In this document: positions 1,878-8,948 of the stretch, one piece after another
Layout of the letters: each line of letters begins with the position of its first letter
Position numbering within the stretch: the first letter of the stretch is position 1
Assembly (NCBI GenBank): GCA_029247315.1
Contig: JAQWLM010000002.1
Location: 201,785-265,784 of the forward strand
Reading direction: 5' to 3'
Source: Verrucomicrobiota bacterium
GTDB taxonomy: Bacteria > Verrucomicrobiota > Verrucomicrobiia > Limisphaerales > AAA164-E04
DNA: 64,000 nucleotides
Notes under the pieces: generated by a model
The model's database searches: none
What the model saw: the letters and a program-made list of their open reading frames with translations, nothing else
Told to the model about the DNA's origin: nothing
Made by a program: the position numbers and the translations under genes

Positions 1878-2273
1878 TCAGGACTGTTTCGAGGAATGCG
1901 TGGGAGACTTGGGTTCGGTCACGACCGTGTCTTCGTGCTCATAACAAGGTGCACAGCAGCAAAGCAAGCGGAGCGACTGCTTTCCGGTATTCCACAGCTT
2001 GTGCCTCTTTCCGGGTGGAATGGCAATGGCATCACCAACCTGGACAACTTGCTCTTCATCCTCGATCCTCATCCTGCCCTGTCCCTCCAGAATGAAGTAG
2101 ATTTCCTCGCTGCGCTCATGAAAATGCTCATCCGTGGCACAGCCTGAAGGGAGCGTGGCTTCTGCAAGGCTTTGATTGCGAATGTTCGCGTTACGATATG
2201 CCATCAATTCGCGGATGTGCGAACCGTCCTTGGTGATAAAGGAATCCACTTGATTTAGGTTGACCACATTCAT
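1878..2273 (-). CDS. cupin domain protein
   Basis: 131 aa. Cupin motifs DEHFHERSEEIYFILEG and GDAIAIPPGKRHKLWNTG. Ends 2 nt before the glutaredoxin-like gene. Confidence 0.7.
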   Translation of the reverse strand: MNVVNLNQVDSFITKDGSHIRELMAYRNANIRNQSLAEATLPSGCATDEHFHERSEEIYFILEGQGRMRIEDEEQVVQVGDAIAIPPGKRHKLWNTGKQSLRLLCCCAPCYEHEDTVVTEPKSPTHSSKQS

Positions 2274-2380
2274 CTCGGATCAATCTACGGCATGTATAGC
2301 GTGAAGTGAACCCCCTTTCTGAATCGATGAGCCAACCCATCCATGCAGGCACTCCAATGGCAACATGGCCTTGACTCGAG

Positions 2381-2461
2381 ATTAGCATGCTTGTTAACTT
2401 TGTTTTTTTTAATTGAATTTTTAAGCATTATTTGCTCTATTGCTAATATTAAGGATTTTTT
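2381..2461 (+). promoter_or_regulatory. AT-rich putative promoter/leader region of the HTH-kinase-GalU trio
   Basis: About 80 nt, clearly more AT-rich than the surroundings (ttgttaactttgttttttttaattgaatttttaagcattatttgctctattgctaatattaaggatttttt). AAGGA lies 7 nt before ATG 2462. TTGAAT- and TAATAT-like hexamers are present, but I cannot assign exact -35/-10 boxes. Confidence 0.35.
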
Positions 2462-3754
2462 ATGTTGTTTTCGAAATTGTTTTTGCAAATCACACCAAAT
2501 GCAACAGGCGCTGAACTAGCGCGCTTGCTGGGTAAATCAAAACCTTATGTCGCGCAAATTCGCACAGGGAACAGGATTCCTACGGATGAAGATATCATCC
2601 TTCTCGCCAACCATTTTGCGAAGGATCGTCTCGAAGAACTGCTGCTTTCAGCCTATTATGACCGCATTGAAGGAAGGGATTTCAAGGACGTCACCCTGAA
2701 AGAAAAAGGCGCAGCAGCCCTGAAAAAACTCCTGCGCAAGTCCAGTCCCGGGATAGTATGTCAAGGTGAACGCACCTTTAAGGATTTTCCAGGCCAGTTT
2801 TCCCCGCTGGCCATTATCACGGGTGACAAACGAGAAACTCGGGGACGTCACATTGGCGCAGGTGATTTCGGGGTGCACGCCACAACGACAGCGGACAGCC
2901 GGTGGTTGATGAGTCTGGGTCTGGAACAGGACGCAGTGCATTACATCGACAAGGATTTCGTATTACTGGAGGAAGATGTCCTGATCGAGCGCTTTGCCGA
3001 AAAAAACCTACTGGTGATAGGCAGCCCTGCGGTGAATCATCTTTCCCGACGCATCAACCGTTCCTCTATCTTCCGTTTCAACATCAATAGCGAGGTCGAT
3101 GAAGGGCTTGAAAGCATCATTAGAAAGGCAAAGACCAAATCAACGTCCAAGGATGAGCTGGCCCTTTTCTATCAGGAATCCGTTGAGGACCTGACCAAAC
3201 TCATGCGTTACCTGTTCGTCGGTGGCATCGTAGACCCCAGCTATCCCAAAGGAGATTACATCACCTCAACCTACCACCAGATACCTGGTAATACGGACCT
3301 CGATTTTGGGGTGCTTTCCTTTGCAGCAAACCCATTCTACGACATGAAATGCAGGGCGGAGGGACGCCCAAATGATCATCGCTTCGTGTCCATCTTTGCC
3401 GCAGGCGTCCATCACCCCGCAACCGCACACGCCATTCGACAGCTTGGATCCTTTGGCAAAGAAGAAAGGGTATTCGATCAGCATCCCTTCGGCGGGGTTT
3501 TTCGCGTGGAGTTGAACCTGGAACAAACATTTTATTCCGACCGGGTTGGCAATGGCACCTTCCTCTGGGAAGATGACGCAGACGACCAACGCACCCCCAT
3601 CGCCGATCAGGGTGAATGCCTTATTTCCGAACTGGAGTATATCGAGAATGAACGACGCCTGGAAAACCTGAATACCCTGCAAATCAGGCCCGATCATGCC
3701 TTGAAGGCACGCCGACTTTTGGAGACGTTGATCAAAACCGGGACCCACTCATGA
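2462..3754 (+). CDS. XRE-type helix-turn-helix protein with uncharacterised ~350-aa C-terminal domain
   Basis: 430-aa ORF. N-terminal HTH (TGAELARLLGKSKPYVAQIRTGNRIPTDEDIILLANHF). I recognise no family in the remainder (NLLVIGSPAVNHLSRRIN, VSIFAAGVHHPATAHAIRQLG). The stop overlaps the next start (ATGA at 3751-3754). Confidence 0.6.
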   Translation: MLFSKLFLQITPNATGAELARLLGKSKPYVAQIRTGNRIPTDEDIILLANHFAKDRLEELLLSAYYDRIEGRDFKDVTLKEKGAAALKKLLRKSSPGIVCQGERTFKDFPGQFSPLAIITGDKRETRGRHIGAGDFGVHATTTADSRWLMSLGLEQDAVHYIDKDFVLLEEDVLIERFAEKNLLVIGSPAVNHLSRRINRSSIFRFNINSEVDEGLESIIRKAKTKSTSKDELALFYQESVEDLTKLMRYLFVGGIVDPSYPKGDYITSTYHQIPGNTDLDFGVLSFAANPFYDMKCRAEGRPNDHRFVSIFAAGVHHPATAHAIRQLGSFGKEERVFDQHPFGGVFRVELNLEQTFYSDRVGNGTFLWEDDADDQRTPIADQGECLISELEYIENERRLENLNTLQIRPDHALKARRLLETLIKTGTHS

Positions 3755-4782
3755 AAAAACGCCATATCAAGACATGCGCCCATCCTCGCGTGGGATTGGT
3801 TGGAAATCCGAGCGACGGATACTTTGGCCGAACCATTGCCTTTACCTTTACCAACTTCAAGGCAGACATACTGCTGGGTGAGGATTCCACACGTATCAGT
3901 TTCGTCAACAGGGAATCAGAGTTTCAATCCGTGGATGACCTCTGTTCCGATATCCGTATGCATGGCTACTATGGGGGCATCCGGCTGCTCAAGGCCGCCA
4001 TCAAAAGATTCAGAGACTACTGCCGCACCACGGGGCTGGAAGTTGATTTCTCAAGAAAATTCAAGATGGCCTATACATCCGACATTCCACAGCAGGTTGG
4101 GCTTGCTGGGTCCAGTGCCATCATTCTCGCCACTTTCAGGGCCTTGATGGCATTTTACGAAGTGACAATCGATTTTAAGATTCTGCCAGGACTGGTGCGG
4201 GAAGTAGAAACCCTCGAGCTCAAGATACCCGCTGGACTGCAGGATCGTGTGGCCCAAGTCTACGATGATTTCGTTTTCATGGACTTCAACAGGGAACACA
4301 TGGAACAAGAGGGTCATGGGCGCTATGAAACTCTCAAGATACCCAGCATGCCGCTTTTCTACGTAGCTTATCGCAGTGACATGTCGGAGGGAACAGAGAT
4401 TTCCCACAATCGATTAAGGTATAAATATGATGAGGGCGACGAGGATGCACATAAGGCCATGGAGTTTTGGTCCAATCTGACACTGACGGCCAGAAAAGCT
4501 CTCGAGGAGGGAGATTCAAAGGGATTATTCAGCTGTATCAACGCCAATTTCGACACTCGCAGAGAGCTTTATAAGAAACTTAAAATTCCGATCAAGCAAG
4601 AGAACCTGAACATGGTCCAATGGGCGCGAGAGATGGGTGCAAGTGCCAAATTTGCTGGATCAGGCGGTGCCATCGTGGGCACCTACCAGGAGGCCTCAGA
4701 TTTCACGAAGTTGAAAAAGCACCTTGAAAACCGCGGTATCAAAGTCCTCAAACCCAACTTGAGAAAGGATAAAACAGCTTGA
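3751..4782 (+). CDS. GHMP-family sugar-1-kinase, glucuronokinase-like
   Basis: 343 aa. GHMP motif II PQQVGLAGSSAIILA and motif III KFAGSGGAIVG. The blocks GNPSDGYFGRTIAF, GYYGGIRLL and AGLQDRVAQVY recall the plant glucuronokinase subfamily (from memory, not searched). Confidence 0.7.
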   Translation: MKKRHIKTCAHPRVGLVGNPSDGYFGRTIAFTFTNFKADILLGEDSTRISFVNRESEFQSVDDLCSDIRMHGYYGGIRLLKAAIKRFRDYCRTTGLEVDFSRKFKMAYTSDIPQQVGLAGSSAIILATFRALMAFYEVTIDFKILPGLVREVETLELKIPAGLQDRVAQVYDDFVFMDFNREHMEQEGHGRYETLKIPSMPLFYVAYRSDMSEGTEISHNRLRYKYDEGDEDAHKAMEFWSNLTLTARKALEEGDSKGLFSCINANFDTRRELYKKLKIPIKQENLNMVQWAREMGASAKFAGSGGAIVGTYQEASDFTKLKKHLENRGIKVLKPNLRKDKTA

Positions 4783-5645
4783 TCCGCAAAGCCGTCATTC
4801 CAGCAGCAGGTTTTGGCACACGCTTCCTGCCCGCATCGAAATCCATTCCCAAGGAAATGATCCCCGTGGTGGATAAACCCACGATACAATATGTCGTGGA
4901 AGAAGCCGTGCAGGCGGGAATAGAGGAAATCCTGGTGATCGTAAGTAGCGGCAAAGACGCCATCAGAGAGCACTTCGCCCCACATGATGCATTGGAGCAC
5001 TTGCTCGAGAAGAAGGGAAAAGCAAAGGAGTTGAAGTGTGTACGTTCGCTATCGGACATGGCTAAGATGCACTACGTGCATCAGGAATCCATGCGAGGTC
5101 TCGGGGATGCCATACGTTATGCAAAGGATTTTGCAGATGGTGATCCTTTCGCCATCCTGCTTGGCGACACCGTGATCCGCTCCCATACAAAGATCTCCGT
5201 GCTTCAGTCCATGGTGCAAATCCATGACAAACATGAGAGCTCGGTCATCGCCCTCAGGGCCATGCCGCGTTCCAGCATCAGTCAGTATGGCGTGATTTCG
5301 GGAAAAGCGATCGGGGATCGACTCTTTGAAATTGATCAACTGGTCGAAAAACCCGATGCAGCCCAGGCCCCCAGCCTGCTGGCAGTGTCGGCTCGATACA
5401 TCGTCACTTCTCGTATTTTTGAACACCTCGAGGACACACGACCAGGGTTCGGGGGTGAGATCCAGATCACGGATGCCCTCAACACTCTGGCACAGAGAGA
5501 AAAAATGCTGGGTTTTCAATTTGAAGGGGAACGACTGGATATTGGTAACAAGCTTGAGTTCATTAAAAGCAATGTGCTCATGGGCTTGGAGCAACCCGAC
5601 ATGAAGGCGGATCTTGAAGATTTTCTCAGGAAATTGATCGACTGA
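4779..5645 (+). CDS. galU: UTP--glucose-1-phosphate uridylyltransferase (GalU-type UDP-sugar pyrophosphorylase)
   Basis: 288 aa. IRKAVIPAAGFGTRFLPASKSIPKEMIPVVDKPTIQYVVEEAVQAGIEEI is the GalU N-terminal signature. The TTG start overlaps the kinase stop (TTGA at 4779-4782). Confidence 0.85.
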   Translation: MIRKAVIPAAGFGTRFLPASKSIPKEMIPVVDKPTIQYVVEEAVQAGIEEILVIVSSGKDAIREHFAPHDALEHLLEKKGKAKELKCVRSLSDMAKMHYVHQESMRGLGDAIRYAKDFADGDPFAILLGDTVIRSHTKISVLQSMVQIHDKHESSVIALRAMPRSSISQYGVISGKAIGDRLFEIDQLVEKPDAAQAPSLLAVSARYIVTSRIFEHLEDTRPGFGGEIQITDALNTLAQREKMLGFQFEGERLDIGNKLEFIKSNVLMGLEQPDMKADLEDFLRKLID

Positions 5646-5844
5646 ATGCACGGATGACAAAAAGAAGAGGTAACTCCTGCGGGAATCCTCAATCGGCAAT
5701 GTCAGGAAAGAGGGGGGCAAAGCGTTTAACCGTGACAACTAAACCCTAAGTAACCCGAAGTGATGCAAACAATCAAGGCACGCAGGTGGCACAGCTTACG
5801 GTAATGGACCAGGTTTCTTGATCACCTCACCCACACCGAAAACC

Positions 5845-6453
5845 ATGTACATCATCAAATACCTCATTCCATCAGCACTCCTCCTGAGCACTTTCATTTT
5901 GATCTCGACCAAGCTCAAGGGTGAGCGCGGCGATTATTATCAACAAAGCCACAAGGAAATGGTGGGCAGGTTCGATCTGGACGGTGACGGATTCCTTGAT
6001 CGTGAGGAAAGGGAAAAAATGCGGGCCACGCCAAAACCAGCTGGCAAACAATTTAAACGCGGCAGGGAGAAAAAGAGAGTGCGAAGAGACATGCCACGCC
6101 ATTGGATCGAAAAATACGACAAGGACGGGGATGGTGGACTTTCTGATAATGAAGCAGGGATGGGCTACAGGGCCGAACTCAAGCGACTGTTCATGGTTTA
6201 TGACACCAACAAGAATGACAGGCTGGACCCTGAGGAAACAGCCCGTCTTGCCGGGAATATCGAGGCAGGCAAATATGCAAGCTGGGATCATTCTGTTGCC
6301 AACGAAACCCTGAAGGAGGCCACCCGCGACGATAGCCAGGAAAAACGAAACCTGAGCAGACGACAACGAGCGTGGCTCAGGGAGGATCTGGATGGGGATG
6401 GTCGGGCCAGTGAAGAGGAAATTGCCACCATTCGAAACAAGGAGCGAAAGTGA
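5845..6453 (+). CDS. secreted/membrane-anchored EF-hand calcium-binding protein (four EF loops)
   Basis: N-terminal hydrophobic segment YLIPSALLLSTFILIS. Four 12-residue EF loops: DLDGDGFLDREE, DKDGDGGLSDNE, DTNKNDRLDPEE, DLDGDGRASEEE. ATG 5845 is preferred over the TTG at 5818 in the ORF track. Confidence 0.75.
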   Translation: MYIIKYLIPSALLLSTFILISTKLKGERGDYYQQSHKEMVGRFDLDGDGFLDREEREKMRATPKPAGKQFKRGREKKRVRRDMPRHWIEKYDKDGDGGLSDNEAGMGYRAELKRLFMVYDTNKNDRLDPEETARLAGNIEAGKYASWDHSVANETLKEATRDDSQEKRNLSRRQRAWLREDLDGDGRASEEEIATIRNKERK

Positions 6454-6488
6454 TCAGGACCTGCATCCATCCAGTATCTCTTTGGCAC

Positions 6489-8948
6489 ATGTGGTGGCCG
6501 ACTTGTTTTCTGCTTTCAATAAACCTGATCATCTGCGCGCACGCCCAGGAAGCCAGGCCGGCTGGCAACTCAAGCCTCGAACAGGTTGTGATCAGTGAAT
6601 TCCTGGCGATCAATGAAGCAGGAATGAGGGATGATGATGGAGATCTTTGCGACTGGATTGAGTTGCACAACACGGGTGATGCTATCGTCGACTTGACTGA
6701 CTGTTTCCTGACAGATGAGATCGACATGCCCATCAAATGGAAACTGCCGACTCTCCTTATGGAGGCTGGAGAATATGTGCTCATCTTCGCCTCGGGAAAA
6801 GATCGCAGAGACTCCAAAGACCCACTACACACCAACTTTAGCCTGAATGGAGACGGGGAGTATCTCGCCCTGGTGGACCCTGATGGTGAAAGTATCCTGC
6901 ACGGTTTTGGTCCATCCTACCCCAAGCAGAAAAAGGATACTTCCTTCGGTCTACCACCCGAGTGGCATCACGGGACGGGATCTGCGAGTAAACCTGGCTT
7001 CCTGTTGAAACCCAGTCCTGGAGCACCGAACAAAGCGAGATCCTCAGGTAAGGTCAAAGCCGTAAAGTGGAGTCATGACCGTGGTTTTTACAGGAAAGCC
7101 TTCAGATTAAAGCTCACCACATCCACGCCGAATGCACGCATCTATTATACCACCGACGGATCCATACCCGATCAGAAGGCTCGGCCCTACAGTCAACCTT
7201 TGAATCTGCACCAGACAAGCACCCTGCGCGTCAGGGCCTTCAAAAAAGGAAACCGACCCTCTAATATCAAAACCCAGACCTTCCTCTTTCCCGGGGATAT
7301 CATTCACCAGTCACCCGACGGCTTGCCCCCTGTAGGTTTCCCTTATCACTGGGGACGCAACCGGGTGGATTACGGCATGGATCCACGGGTAGTCAATGAT
7401 CCAGACTATCGTGATGAAATTGTCCATGGACTGGAATCGCTTCCCTCCTATTCCATTGTAACAGATATGGACCATCTGTTTGACACCCAGAAGGGTATCT
7501 ATGCCAATGCGCAAAATGATGGTCGTGAATGGGAGCGTCCCGCATCAGTGGAACTCCTGCTTGCCGATGGTCGTGATGGATTCCAAATCGATTGCGGCAT
7601 TCGCATAAGAGGAGGCTTCAGCCGACGGGCCGACAATGCGAAACACGCCTTCAGGCTCTTTTTTCGGGATACCTACGGTAAAGCCAAACTCCAATACCCG
7701 CTTTTTGGCAATGAAGGGGCCAAGTCCTTTGATAACCTCGACCTTCGTTGTTCCTCCAACTACGCGTGGAGCATGGGAGGGGATCCTCATGCCGCCTTAT
7801 GCCGCGACCAGATCAATCGGGATCTGCAACTCTCGCTTGGACATCCGGCAATGCGTGGGTATTTTTGTCACCTTTACATCAATGGCCACTACTGGGGGCT
7901 TTACAACACCTGCGAGCGACCCAAGGCAGGTTATGGAAAGAGCTATTTCGGAGGCAAAAAAGAAGATTATGATGCCGTAAAGGTCAGTAAGGATCGAGGA
8001 GGCATCATGGCAACCGACGGTAACCTTGATGCATGGCGCCGCATTTATAATATCGCAAGGGCCGGCTTGAAGGACAATGCAGCCTACTTTGGACTGGAGG
8101 GAAAAAATGCAAATGGAATCAATGATCCCACCCAAGAAGTCCTGGTCGACATCGACAATGTCATCGACTATGCCCTGGTCATTTTTTACGGGGGCAACCT
8201 TGATGCAGCCATCACTTGGTTTGGCAGAAATCGATGGCATAACAACTGGCATGGTATCCGTAACCGCAAGAGCAGGGACGGCTTCAAGTTTTTCATCTGG
8301 GATGCGGAGCATACCTTTCTTCTGTCAGGCATGAATAAAGGACTTTACGAAGATCGCACAGGACCCTTTGGATCAGGCGAACAATTTGGCTCCAGCAATC
8401 CCCAATGGCTGTGGCAACAATGCCTGGATAACGCTGAATTTCGCATACGCGCATCGGATCGAATCCATGCACTTTTTCATGATGGGGGCTTACTCACCCC
8501 CGAACCGGTCAGGCAGATTGTGACGGATCGCATGCTTGAGATACAGTCAGCCGTGATCTGCGAATCCGCAAGATGGGGTGATAGTTCACGATCTGACACC
8601 CCCCCACGGACCCGCAATGATGACTGGCAAAAGGAAATGGACCGTATTCTCAATGTTTATATCCCACAGCGCAGTGACATTGTGCTGGCGCAACTTTTTC
8701 GCCAGGGGATCATTCCGGATTTCGATCCGCCCAGCATGGTCAGAACCCATGACACGCTCACCATGAAAACACCCCGCGGAACGATCTACTACACCGAGGA
8801 TGGAACCGATCCCCGGCAGATTGGGGGTTCCGTTGCAGGGAGTGCAATCAAGTATCATGCTCCCTTAACCGCAGGCGAAGGCAGACACATCAAGGCTCGC
8901 GCTCGATATCGAAATGAGTGGAGTGTCCTGAAAACCACCAAATTTTAG
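6489..8948 (+). CDS. CotH kinase-family protein with N-terminal lamin-tail domain and chitobiase/HEX C-terminal-like modules
   Basis: Signal peptide MWWPTCFLLSINLIICAHAQE. LTD-like VVISEFLAINE...DWIELHNTGDAIVDLTDCFLTDE. CotH core YFCHLYINGHYWGLYNTCERP. ARIYYTTDGSIPD and GTIYYTEDGTDP modules. ATG 6489 is preferred over GTG 6450. Confidence 0.8.
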   Translation: MWWPTCFLLSINLIICAHAQEARPAGNSSLEQVVISEFLAINEAGMRDDDGDLCDWIELHNTGDAIVDLTDCFLTDEIDMPIKWKLPTLLMEAGEYVLIFASGKDRRDSKDPLHTNFSLNGDGEYLALVDPDGESILHGFGPSYPKQKKDTSFGLPPEWHHGTGSASKPGFLLKPSPGAPNKARSSGKVKAVKWSHDRGFYRKAFRLKLTTSTPNARIYYTTDGSIPDQKARPYSQPLNLHQTSTLRVRAFKKGNRPSNIKTQTFLFPGDIIHQSPDGLPPVGFPYHWGRNRVDYGMDPRVVNDPDYRDEIVHGLESLPSYSIVTDMDHLFDTQKGIYANAQNDGREWERPASVELLLADGRDGFQIDCGIRIRGGFSRRADNAKHAFRLFFRDTYGKAKLQYPLFGNEGAKSFDNLDLRCSSNYAWSMGGDPHAALCRDQINRDLQLSLGHPAMRGYFCHLYINGHYWGLYNTCERPKAGYGKSYFGGKKEDYDAVKVSKDRGGIMATDGNLDAWRRIYNIARAGLKDNAAYFGLEGKNANGINDPTQEVLVDIDNVIDYALVIFYGGNLDAAITWFGRNRWHNNWHGIRNRKSRDGFKFFIWDAEHTFLLSGMNKGLYEDRTGPFGSGEQFGSSNPQWLWQQCLDNAEFRIRASDRIHALFHDGGLLTPEPVRQIVTDRMLEIQSAVICESARWGDSSRSDTPPRTRNDDWQKEMDRILNVYIPQRSDIVLAQLFRQGIIPDFDPPSMVRTHDTLTMKTPRGTIYYTEDGTDPRQIGGSVAGSAIKYHAPLTAGEGRHIKARARYRNEWSVLKTTKF

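Follow-up and report, generated by a model that had tools for sequence, protein, structure and literature searches.

At positions 2462–5645 of the window (the whole 64,000-nt stretch of verrucomicrobial DNA that was analysed), three consecutive genes lie on the forward strand. ORF1 (2462–3754, 430 aa) encodes a protein whose XRE-type HTH is followed by a C-terminal domain without a Pfam model. It is followed by a predicted glucuronokinase-family GHMP sugar-1-kinase (3751–4782, 343 aa, EC 2.7.1.43-like; hereafter the kinase) and a predicted GalU-type UTP:sugar-1-phosphate uridylyltransferase of a kinase-linked subfamily (4779–5645, 288 aa, TTG start; hereafter GalU). The ORF1 stop and the kinase start share an ATGA (3751–3754), and the kinase stop and the GalU start share a TTGA (4779–4782). 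Upstream of ORF1 lies a leader (2385–2461, same strand), presumed from its composition to be the promoter/operator region, with a GC content of 22% as compared to 53.5% for the window; just 0.05% of 77-nt windows are equally or more AT-rich. A sequence-only reading had described a stop/start-linked trio behind an AT-rich leader, and the coordinates, both overlaps and the leader composition were all confirmed. A scan of 2100–6000 for promoter and terminator consensus sequences gave the counts expected from shuffled sequence, with none above background, and an operator search of the leader and the window yielded one weak inverted repeat and no conserved operator. TTTTGYAAAT was rejected as an operator: its single copy lies within the ORF1 coding sequence, and the encoded LFLQI accounts for its conservation.

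In favour of the TTG start of GalU, an essential N-terminal loop, AVIPAAGFGTRFLPASK, which aligns with solved GalUs from residue 2, precedes the first ATG (on two other contigs gene callers chose an internal ATG, giving a 262-aa product). Since 4-nt stop/start overlaps are frequent among bacteria, a single one is weak evidence; the overlaps here go beyond chance because they are conserved across related loci. The ATGA recurs in both relatives that have ORF1 (L004 and L005), and of 72 related loci at least 31 have a kinase/GalU overlap of exactly 4 nt. The kinase and GalU are presumably co-transcribed.

Family assignment of the kinase and GalU

The five motif blocks named in the sequence-only reading (GNPSDGYFGRTI at aa 18–29, GYYGGIRLL at 72–80, GLAGSSAI at 117–124, AGLQDRVAQVY at 161–171 and KFAGSGGA at 300–307) are all present in the translation of the kinase. 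GLAGSSAI (the phosphate loop) and KFAGSGGA (the GSGGA motif III), together with a PF00288 match of 40.7 bits, give it the fold and motifs of a GHMP kinase. It is similar over its full length to characterised glucuronokinases (EC 2.7.1.43, KEGG K16190), with 39% identity to both Arabidopsis GlcAK (214 bits, E 3e-71) and the kinase domain of fish GKUP (231 bits). An HMM built from plant GlcAKs only scores 261 bits on the kinase, and no solved GHMP kinase gets above 45.9 bits with it; among those solved proteins the best match to the kinase is 39.6 bits. NCBIfam equivalogs of other GHMP subfamilies reach at most 41.3 bits (cut-offs: 127–600), so that HddA, mevalonate kinase, phosphomevalonate kinase, archaeal shikimate kinase and GalK were rejected as identities. 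Across bacterial and plant sequences 71 columns are invariant, among them an N-terminal GNPSDxYxG(R/K)T block that, by what is generally known of GHMP sugar kinases, probably forms part of the sugar site. The Lilium peptide VGFLGNPSDVYFGR (PMC2823444) corresponds to VGLVGNPSDGYFGR in the kinase, and the characterised plant and fish glucuronokinases are both strictly GlcA-specific (PMC2823444, PMC3938481). By HMM and BLAST scores the kinase is a member of the glucuronokinase (GlcAK) family, grouping with the plant enzyme and not with GalK, MvaK or ThrB, as the sequence-only reading had proposed from its motifs, nor with HddA.

GalU-type enzymes classically act on Glc-1-P. The window's GalU, which has PF00483/PF12804-type matches only, narrowly misses the TIGR01099 equivalog cut-off (322.8 vs 326.8 bits) and scores 247.6 bits against B. 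subtilis YngB (162–248 bits against 16 solved GalUs). With residue roles taken from bioRxiv 10.1101/2020.11.30.405621 and PMC11796359, the catalytic Arg, the Lys/Glu of the uridine site, the Mg-binding Asp, the Glu/Lys of the EKP motif and Gly172 are conserved in it and in 71–72 of 72 kinase-linked GalUs. Apart from two exchanges, Asp134 to Thr (71/72) and His113 to Asp (70/72), the linked set keeps every residue that binds uridine, Mg, phosphate or glucose. The window's GalU carries both exchanges, as Thr131 (LLGD-T) and Asp110 (GLGDA), and Thr131 takes the position of the glucose-contacting Asp (YngB D134, PaUGP D131) behind the Mg-binding Asp. This Asp does not occur throughout the family. 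E. coli and Klebsiella GalUs have Val at this position and yet are UGPases (PMC11796359), so the Thr is no proof of a changed specificity. In an independent metagenome sample drawn from the GalU side, an upstream kinase was found at 4 of 5 Thr loci as compared to 0 of 53 Asp/other loci (Fisher p = 1.2e-5, confounded by phylogeny). GLGDA was discarded as a marker of kinase linkage, being present in 13 kinase-less GDD GalUs too. By these residues the kinase-linked GalUs are a distinct GalU-type subfamily; having every residue of a working UGPase, the linked GalU may also simply be the housekeeping GalU.

Conservation and genomic neighborhood

In 73 of 80 genome loci the gene immediately 3' of the kinase, in the same orientation, is GalU, and the loci with this pair span Verrucomicrobiota, Kiritimatiellia, Lentisphaerae and Planctomycetota; in the cultured Opitutaceae TAV4 the two genes form a clean bicistronic unit. 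Kinase and GalU are translationally coupled and strongly conserved as a unit throughout the PVC superphylum. The sequence-only reading had staked its proposed module partly on conservation of the trio in PVC genomes; the survey retains the kinase-GalU pair and dismisses the trio, since ORF1 is found at only 2 of the 80 loci, those of the window's two closest relatives (L004 and L005, 69–75% protein identity). The kinase has no adjoining GalU at seven loci. One Bacteroidales locus has a kinase without GalU, and its neighbors are putatively fucosidase-like (N-terminal sequences read by eye).

The kinase family is large (more than 8000 matches, vs 82 for the ORF1 family) and comprises, at 50% identity, no fewer than 363 clusters. 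NCBI records call its members 'GHMP kinase' or 'hypothetical protein', and some even 'mevalonate kinase'. Among the best 150 family representatives, 36 are at least 540 aa long with a C-terminal kinase domain, and 7 of 10 long fusion candidates scanned against Pfam contain an N-terminal NTP-transferase domain. One fusion, P0334, has a domain resembling GalU (37% identity, 198 bits) with GLGDA and GD-C. Another candidate (P0107, 590 aa) was dropped: its N-terminal extension is of low complexity, probably an over-extended ORF.

In all 13 Planctomycetota loci an SDR gene lies directly 3' of GalU. Its product scores 217–219 bits against the B. cereus structures 6ZL6/6ZLJ, a UDP-GlcA 4-epimerase (PMC11519531), as compared to ~133 bits against E. 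coli GalE, and this epimerase-like gene points to a uronate product. The Planctomycetota cluster goes on with Gmd and Fcl, given which the neighborhood may be a general nucleotide-sugar cluster.

The N-terminal helical HTH region of ORF1 (2462–2743, aa 1–94) matches only XRE-type HTH structures by Foldseek (DdrO N-domain, C.AhdI, HigA; probability 0.99–1.0); ORF1 matches Pfam HTH_3 (25.8 bits, cut-off 23), and a profile search of PDB with ORF1 returned HTH proteins alone. The AF2 model of the protein has a pLDDT of 90.9, and that of the C-terminal alpha/beta domain alone (2759–3751, aa 100–430; motifs GDKRE, IGSPxxN, GGIxDP, AGxHHPxT and HPxGG) a pLDDT of 92.7 and a pTM of 0.92. This domain has no Foldseek counterpart in PDB (best E 0.13, TM <0.31) or BFVD, no Pfam match among 41 members, and none in NCBIfam or the PDB profile search. 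Its many conserved polar residues are compatible with a ligand pocket, and in P0309 and P0315 it stands behind a TIR domain. Against the PADLOC anti-phage models ORF1 gave only a 13-bit HTH match, and the TIR variants matched just via the TIR head. The 82 ORF1 homologues come from a collection of 5.8 billion proteins; those of 43–48% identity, as well as the TIR-headed variant, are stand-alone genes amid unrelated housekeeping genes. ORF1 is lineage-specific and outside the conserved module, and the earlier proposal of the HTH protein as a dedicated sensor/regulator or third enzyme fails as a general one, because distant homologues stand alone elsewhere. ORF1 is most simply read as a local transcription regulator in the window's clade and no component of the pathway.

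Proposed function and competing explanations

We lean, with moderate confidence, to a salvage role of the pair, from GlcA through GlcA-1-P to UDP-GlcA, both substrate specificities being predictions. The kinase would phosphorylate free D-glucuronate at C1 with ATP, and the coupled GalU would convert the sugar-1-phosphate with UTP to UDP-glucuronate (possibly making UDP-glucose also). Such a route would provide nucleotide sugars of uronic acids with no need for UDP-glucose dehydrogenase, and in Planctomycetota its product would go on to the adjoining UDP-GlcA 4-epimerase-like enzyme. Only in the window's clade does the XRE-HTH protein stand in front, translationally coupled.

The kinase could instead feed GalU with another sugar (galactose, glucose, galacturonate or a pentose) and so yield another UDP-sugar. 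A shift of GHMP kinase specificity is possible at ~39% identity, the UGPase pocket of GalU is complete but for one residue, fucosidase-like genes putatively surround the Bacteroidales kinase, and no assay of any bacterial member was found in the literature. We still regard another sugar as unlikely, given the 71 invariant bacterial/plant columns with the GNPSDxYxG(R/K)T block, the strict GlcA specificity of plant and fish enzymes that are far apart, and the uronate suggested by the epimerase-like gene at 13/13 Planctomycetota loci. Less probable again is that no substrate is handed over, GalU being a housekeeping UDP-glucose pyrophosphorylase, the kinase being co-expressed for reasons of regulation or history and any GlcA-1-P made going elsewhere. 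This would suit a GalU barely under the equivalog cut-off with all catalytic residues, the lack of a second GalU at any of the loci, the Gmd and Fcl genes adjoining in some of them, and the seven loci where the kinase has no adjoining GalU. It fits poorly with a gene order and 4-nt overlap kept in four phylum-level lineages, as is typical of consecutive enzymes, with kinase/nucleotidyltransferase fusions that recur in eukaryotes (plus the one GalU-like case), and with a sugar-pocket Asp to Thr exchange specific to kinase-linked GalUs; moreover, GlcA-1-P has no other known consumer (PMC3938481).

That all three genes form one module, with the HTH protein as a dedicated uronate sensor/regulator or third enzyme, seems the least credible of these explanations: 78 of 80 kinase loci lack ORF1, its family is tiny, its 43–48% homologues and the TIR variant occur by themselves in unrelated gene surroundings, and the exchange of HTH for TIR marks sensor or signalling proteins, not metabolic enzymes. 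On its side are the ATGA that the window shares with L004 and L005 although protein identity is down to 69–75%, the AT-rich leader, and the conserved polar residues that fit a ligand pocket. Only slightly more credible, and in our judgment quite improbable, is a bolder extension in which the GD-T GalUs would be an unrecognised class of UDP-GlcA or dual UDP-Glc/UDP-GlcA pyrophosphorylases, and ORF1 a new-fold one-component sensor (with HTH or TIR output) gating surface-glycan precursors in this verrucomicrobial clade, which would link a conflict-type sensor to nucleotide-sugar salvage.

Significance and comparison with known systems

Bacterial GlcAK homologues, including one from Verrucomicrobium spinosum, were listed in 2009 (PMC2823444), and JGI/IMG labels proteins of the kinase family 'glucuronokinase'; the novelty first attached to a bacterial pathway was therefore overstated. 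Our literature search found no paper on bacterial glucuronokinase activity or on a GlcAK-GalU link.

PVC bacteria are major polysaccharide degraders. If the salvage reading is true, they could turn free glucuronate directly into UDP-glucuronate with ATP and UTP, by a route which to our knowledge has not been drawn for bacteria, and a function would be assigned to a widespread, variously named kinase family. GalU would be the first GalU-fold enzyme using GlcA-1-P, which bears on the question raised in 2014 of which enzyme uridylylates GlcA-1-P outside plants. The pair would also make a compact cassette of two bacterial enzymes for UDP-GlcA synthesis in vitro, for which Arabidopsis GlcAK and USP are currently used, and the Asp to Thr site gives a concrete single-residue hypothesis on sugar specificity.

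One of the closest known systems is the salvage arm of the plant myo-inositol oxygenase pathway, AtGlcAK (At3g01640) and USP. Its kinase and the window's are of one family (39% identity, with motifs in common), and the predicted two-step logic is the same (sugar to sugar-1-P to UDP-sugar). Plant USP is a eukaryotic enzyme of ~600 aa in family PF01704; the second enzyme here is a bacterial GalU-type protein of ~290 aa (PF00483) that lacks the eukaryotic UDPGP-type domain and may work like USP without belonging to its family. The plant genes are unlinked, whereas here the kinase and GalU form an overlapping operon.

In zebrafish/Xenopus GKUP (PMC3938481) a kinase domain 39% identical to ours is tied to a short bacterial-type nucleotidyltransferase domain, the same functional pairing in the opposite order (nucleotidyltransferase first). 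The fish pyrophosphorylase domain was rejected as a GalU homologue, as the best BLASTP match of GalU in Carassius GKUP was not significant (E 1.3). The HMM of the linked GalUs hardly picks up the eukaryotic fusions. The pyrophosphorylase activity of GKUP has never been demonstrated in vitro (PMC3938481), and with a UP domain unlike GalU the fusion argument is only partly transferable.

Canonical GalU, GtaB and YngB share fold, length, and catalytic and uridine/phosphate/Mg residues with the window's GalU, which differs by its TIGR01099 score just under the cut-off and by the Thr replacing the glucose-contacting Asp. ORF1 has in common with XRE-family one-component regulators its N-terminal HTH_3 and its structural matches, and departs from them in a 330-aa C-terminal domain without Pfam, PDB or BFVD counterpart that is TIR-attached in some relatives. 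Bacterial salvage pairs of a sugar-1-kinase and a nucleotidyltransferase include Fkp (fucokinase/GDP-fucose pyrophosphorylase), AmgK-MurU and HddA-HddC; in these, as here, an anomeric/sugar kinase is joined to a PF00483 nucleotidyltransferase by genetic coupling or by fusion, and they differ in kinase subfamily, sugar and nucleotide (the HddA model scores 35.7 bits on the kinase, cut-off 600).

The glucuronokinase-family kinase and its overlapping neighbors

Three genes follow one another on the plus strand of the window: ORF1 (2462-3754, 430 aa), encoding an XRE-type HTH protein, a kinase gene on the same strand as ORF1 (3751-4782, 343 aa) and, on the same strand as the kinase gene, a GalU gene (4779-5645, 288 aa, TTG start). 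Our analysis confirmed the three-ORF layout described in the sequence-only reading, with the ORF1 stop and kinase start sharing ATGA (3751-3754) and the kinase stop and GalU start sharing TTGA (4779-4782), and all five sequence blocks cited for the kinase are found in its ORF. The 77 nt 5' of ORF1 have a GC content of 22% as compared to 53.5% for the window, and equally AT-rich stretches account for only 0.05% of same-size windows. The three genes are also found together on the MAG contig GCA_014239995.1. TTG is the correct GalU start, because the nucleotide-binding loop AVIPAAGFGTRFLPASK sits 5' of the first ATG and aligns to solved GalUs from residue 2. In the related contigs L002 (2786-3574) and L003 (1736-2524), the automatic GalU calls begin at an internal ATG and give 262 aa proteins that lack the GxGTRxLPxxK loop; the overlapping TTG is plausibly the true start in these contigs as well. 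Further downstream, the genes of an EF-hand protein (5818-6453) and an LTD/Fn3-assoc/CotH protein (6450-8948) overlap by 4 nt (GTGA) and are kept side by side on related contigs (L001-L003); they appear unconnected with the kinase-GalU pair.

Pfam assigns only generic GHMP domains to the kinase. Mevalonate kinase is the best NCBIfam equivalog, yet at 41 bits versus a cut-off of 163 it was rejected, as was HddA (36 bits, cut-off 600); the closest solved structure is an HddA-like kinase (39.6 bits). The kinase shares 39% identity over 315 residues with the database sequence of Arabidopsis glucuronokinase (GlcAK; 214 bits, E 3e-71) and 39% identity with the kinase domain of a cyprinid 'glucuronokinase with putative uridyl pyrophosphorylase' (GKUP; 231 bits). 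It reaches 261 bits on an HMM built from 117 plant GlcAKs alone, a profile on which no solved GHMP kinase exceeds 45.9 bits. The Lilium peptide VGFLGNPSDVYFGR, which served to clone the plant GlcAK gene (PMC2823444), corresponds to VGLVGNPSDGYFGR in the window kinase. Sequence comparison, with low scores for other GHMP families and strong matches to plant and fish GlcAKs, thus places the kinase in the GlcAK family, and the sequence-only reading, which put it closer to plant glucuronokinase than to GalK, MvaK or ThrB, was correct.

The family is large (>8000 clusters at 90% identity among scored candidates, and 363 representatives at E <= 1e-30), and three bacterial homologues, Verrucomicrobium spinosum among them, were listed by Pieslinger et al. 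2009 (PMC2823444). Our literature search for a characterised bacterial member found none. JGI uses the name 'glucuronokinase' for members of the family, which appear in NCBI as GHMP kinase, hypothetical protein or mevalonate kinase (the last is the name of P0071, a family member from the Limisphaerales locus L050).

Conservation of the pair and position of ORF1

For synteny we used 80 genome loci with kinase relatives (the top 80 out of at least 580, every one of them from the PVC superphylum), mostly MAGs and a top-scoring subset, with ORF starts set mechanically as the longest ORF. The kinase-GalU pair is conserved: in 73 of the 80 loci, the gene directly 3' of the kinase is a GalU homologue in the same orientation. 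With longest-ORF starts, the exact 4-nt stop/start overlap is seen in 31/72 loci; most of the other junctions either fall within 60 nt or give no information, owing to an over-extended ORF start. No gene besides the kinase and GalU is conserved around the pair in the Verrucomicrobiota loci, and in the cultured Opitutaceae TAV4 the two form a clean two-gene unit with opposite-strand genes on both sides. The cassette is apparently widespread in PVC bacteria. Seven of the 80 loci have a kinase without an adjacent GalU, including L050 and L079 (both Limisphaerales), where the genes 5' of the kinase encode N-termini resembling a Gfo/Idh/MocA oxidoreductase and a TIM-barrel sugar isomerase, by the look of the sequence only.

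ORF1 is outside this conserved module. It is present in only 2/80 kinase loci, L004 (75% kinase identity) and L005 (69%), which are the closest relatives and keep the ORF1/kinase ATGA overlap; homologues at 43-48% identity, and a variant with a TIR domain, are single genes in housekeeping surroundings unrelated to them, and neither a kinase nor a GalU gene lies close by. The proposal that all three genes make up one module is not supported by these loci. With ORF1 confined to one clade and its homologues stand-alone, ORF1 is therefore best seen as an independent sensor/regulator-type protein put before the pair, and it may regulate the operon in that clade. Its N-terminus is an XRE-type HTH (HTH_3, 25.8 bits; Foldseek matches to DdrO, C.AhdI and HigA). 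Residues 100-430 (window 2759-3751; 330 residues) form an alpha/beta domain that is confidently predicted (pLDDT 92.7, pTM 0.92) with conserved motifs GDKRE, IGSPxxN, GGIxDP, AGxHHPxT and HPxGG. We found no match to this domain in PDB (best E 0.13, TM <0.31) or BFVD, nor in Pfam across 41 members, and a PDB profile search with ORF1 returned nothing except the HTH; the domain is a candidate for a sensor module not yet described. The ORF1 family is small (82 matches). Most members carry the HTH, a TIR domain replaces it ahead of the ORF1-type C-terminal domain in P0309 and P0315, and P0320 has a long C-terminal extension instead.

In L005, a palindromic element of the TTTACAttttTGTAAA type occurs twice in direct orientation upstream of the ORF1 homologue (8596-8615 and 8645-8664) and is possibly an operator; the window leader has no equivalent pair. 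L087 has a toxin-antitoxin-like pair of small genes (DUF4258 and HTH_3; 5152-5889) just 5' of its ORF1 homologue; the sister contig L086 does not share this small-gene pair.

Substrate of the pair

The best-supported reading is that the kinase-GalU pair is a putative bacterial glucuronate salvage cassette, in which, as we infer for both substrate specificities, the GlcAK-family kinase would convert glucuronate to glucuronate 1-phosphate (GlcA-1-P) and a specialised GalU-type uridylyltransferase would convert GlcA-1-P to UDP-GlcA. Two main rivals stand beside it: the cassette may act on another sugar, or the GalU may be a housekeeping enzyme that receives no hand-off from the kinase. The window GalU scores 322.8 bits on TIGR01099, just below the cut-off of 326.8, and 162-248 bits against 16 solved GalUs. 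We mapped uridine, Mg, phosphate and glucose sites from papers on YngB (bioRxiv 10.1101/2020.11.30.405621) and Klebsiella/Pseudomonas UGP (PMC11796359), and the mapped sites are kept in the window GalU and 72 kinase-linked GalUs, apart from two systematic exceptions, His113 to Asp (70/72) and Asp134 to Thr (71/72; Thr131 in the window, codon 5169-5171). The equivalent D131 of PaUGP helps coordinate glucose and its D131A mutant is nearly inactive (PMC11796359); Asp134 is not universal, because Klebsiella UGP has Val at this position (PMC11796359). In a reciprocal sample of 80 metagenome loci fetched from the GalU side (42-50% identity to the window GalU), Thr is found at this site in five loci (L092, L094, L095, L105 and L112), four of which have a GlcAK-like kinase 20-51 nt upstream; L094 has Thr, yet no kinase within 4 kb upstream. 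Among non-Thr loci whose upstream sequence spans 1.1 kb or more (all Asp but one), 0/53 have the kinase (Fisher p = 1.2e-5, a statistic that ignores phylogeny). With the Asp134 to Thr change tracking with the kinase, the kinase-linked GalUs can thus be recognised as a subfamily whose sugar pocket is altered, and the residue that follows the Mg-binding Asp is a candidate for a switch in specificity. GLGDA was also considered as a marker of kinase linkage and rejected as not specific, because 13 kinase-less GalUs carry it.

The Asp to Thr change takes one negative charge out of the sugar pocket, which is compatible with, and not proof of, a GalU that accepts a carboxylated sugar. The Planctomycetota loci also point towards a uronate product: an SDR epimerase/dehydratase gene lies immediately 3' of GalU in 13/13 loci (UDP-GlcA-4-epimerase-like; about 890-1290 nt past the kinase end in L011, L014, L018, L038, L040, L043, L044, L054, L057, L059, L060, L081 and L082). 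A representative scores 297 bits against 5U4Q (deposited as dTDP-glucose dehydratase), 217-219 bits against 6ZL6 and 6ZLJ (the series 6ZLD, 6ZLL, 6ZLJ is Bacillus cereus UDP-glucuronic acid 4-epimerase; PMC11519531) and only about 133 bits against E. coli GalE; an NCBIfam scan of the SDR gave no equivalog matches. In one locus, L014, Gmd (548.9 bits) and an Fcl-like gene come next after the SDR, and in nine loci a NusG/KOW (UpxY-like) gene lies just 5' of the kinase. These SDR, Gmd/Fcl and NusG-like neighbors therefore place the pair within a nucleotide-sugar or polysaccharide cluster.

Natural fusions and the plant and animal route

Out of the 150 best GlcAK family representatives, 36 are proteins of at least 540 aa with a C-terminal kinase domain, and 7 of 10 long proteins scanned, among them fish GKUP and proteins from a mucoralean fungus and marine protists, have an N-terminal PF00483 nucleotidyltransferase domain, the same pairing as in the kinase-GalU operon. 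The fish GKUP nucleotidyltransferase domain has no detectable similarity to the window GalU, and Gangl et al. were unable to demonstrate in vitro that the animal fusion acts as a pyrophosphorylase (PMC3938481). The linked-GalU HMM strongly matches one fusion only, P0334 (626 aa, from a 2.2-kb metagenome contig), which combines a GalU-like domain (198 bits, 37% identity to the window GalU, with GLGDA and Cys after the Mg-binding Asp) and a GlcAK-like kinase domain (45% identity) in the order opposite to the operon. An unexpected combination is seen in P0469 (889 aa), with a MoeA (molybdopterin molybdenumtransferase) N-terminal region and a GlcAK-like kinase domain.

As far as we found, a GlcAK-GalU cassette in an overlapping operon has not been described in the literature. 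It resembles the plant and animal route in the family of its kinase and in the classic two-step logic of a kinase followed by a pyrophosphorylase, whereas here the second enzyme has the GalU fold and the genes are arranged in an overlapping operon.
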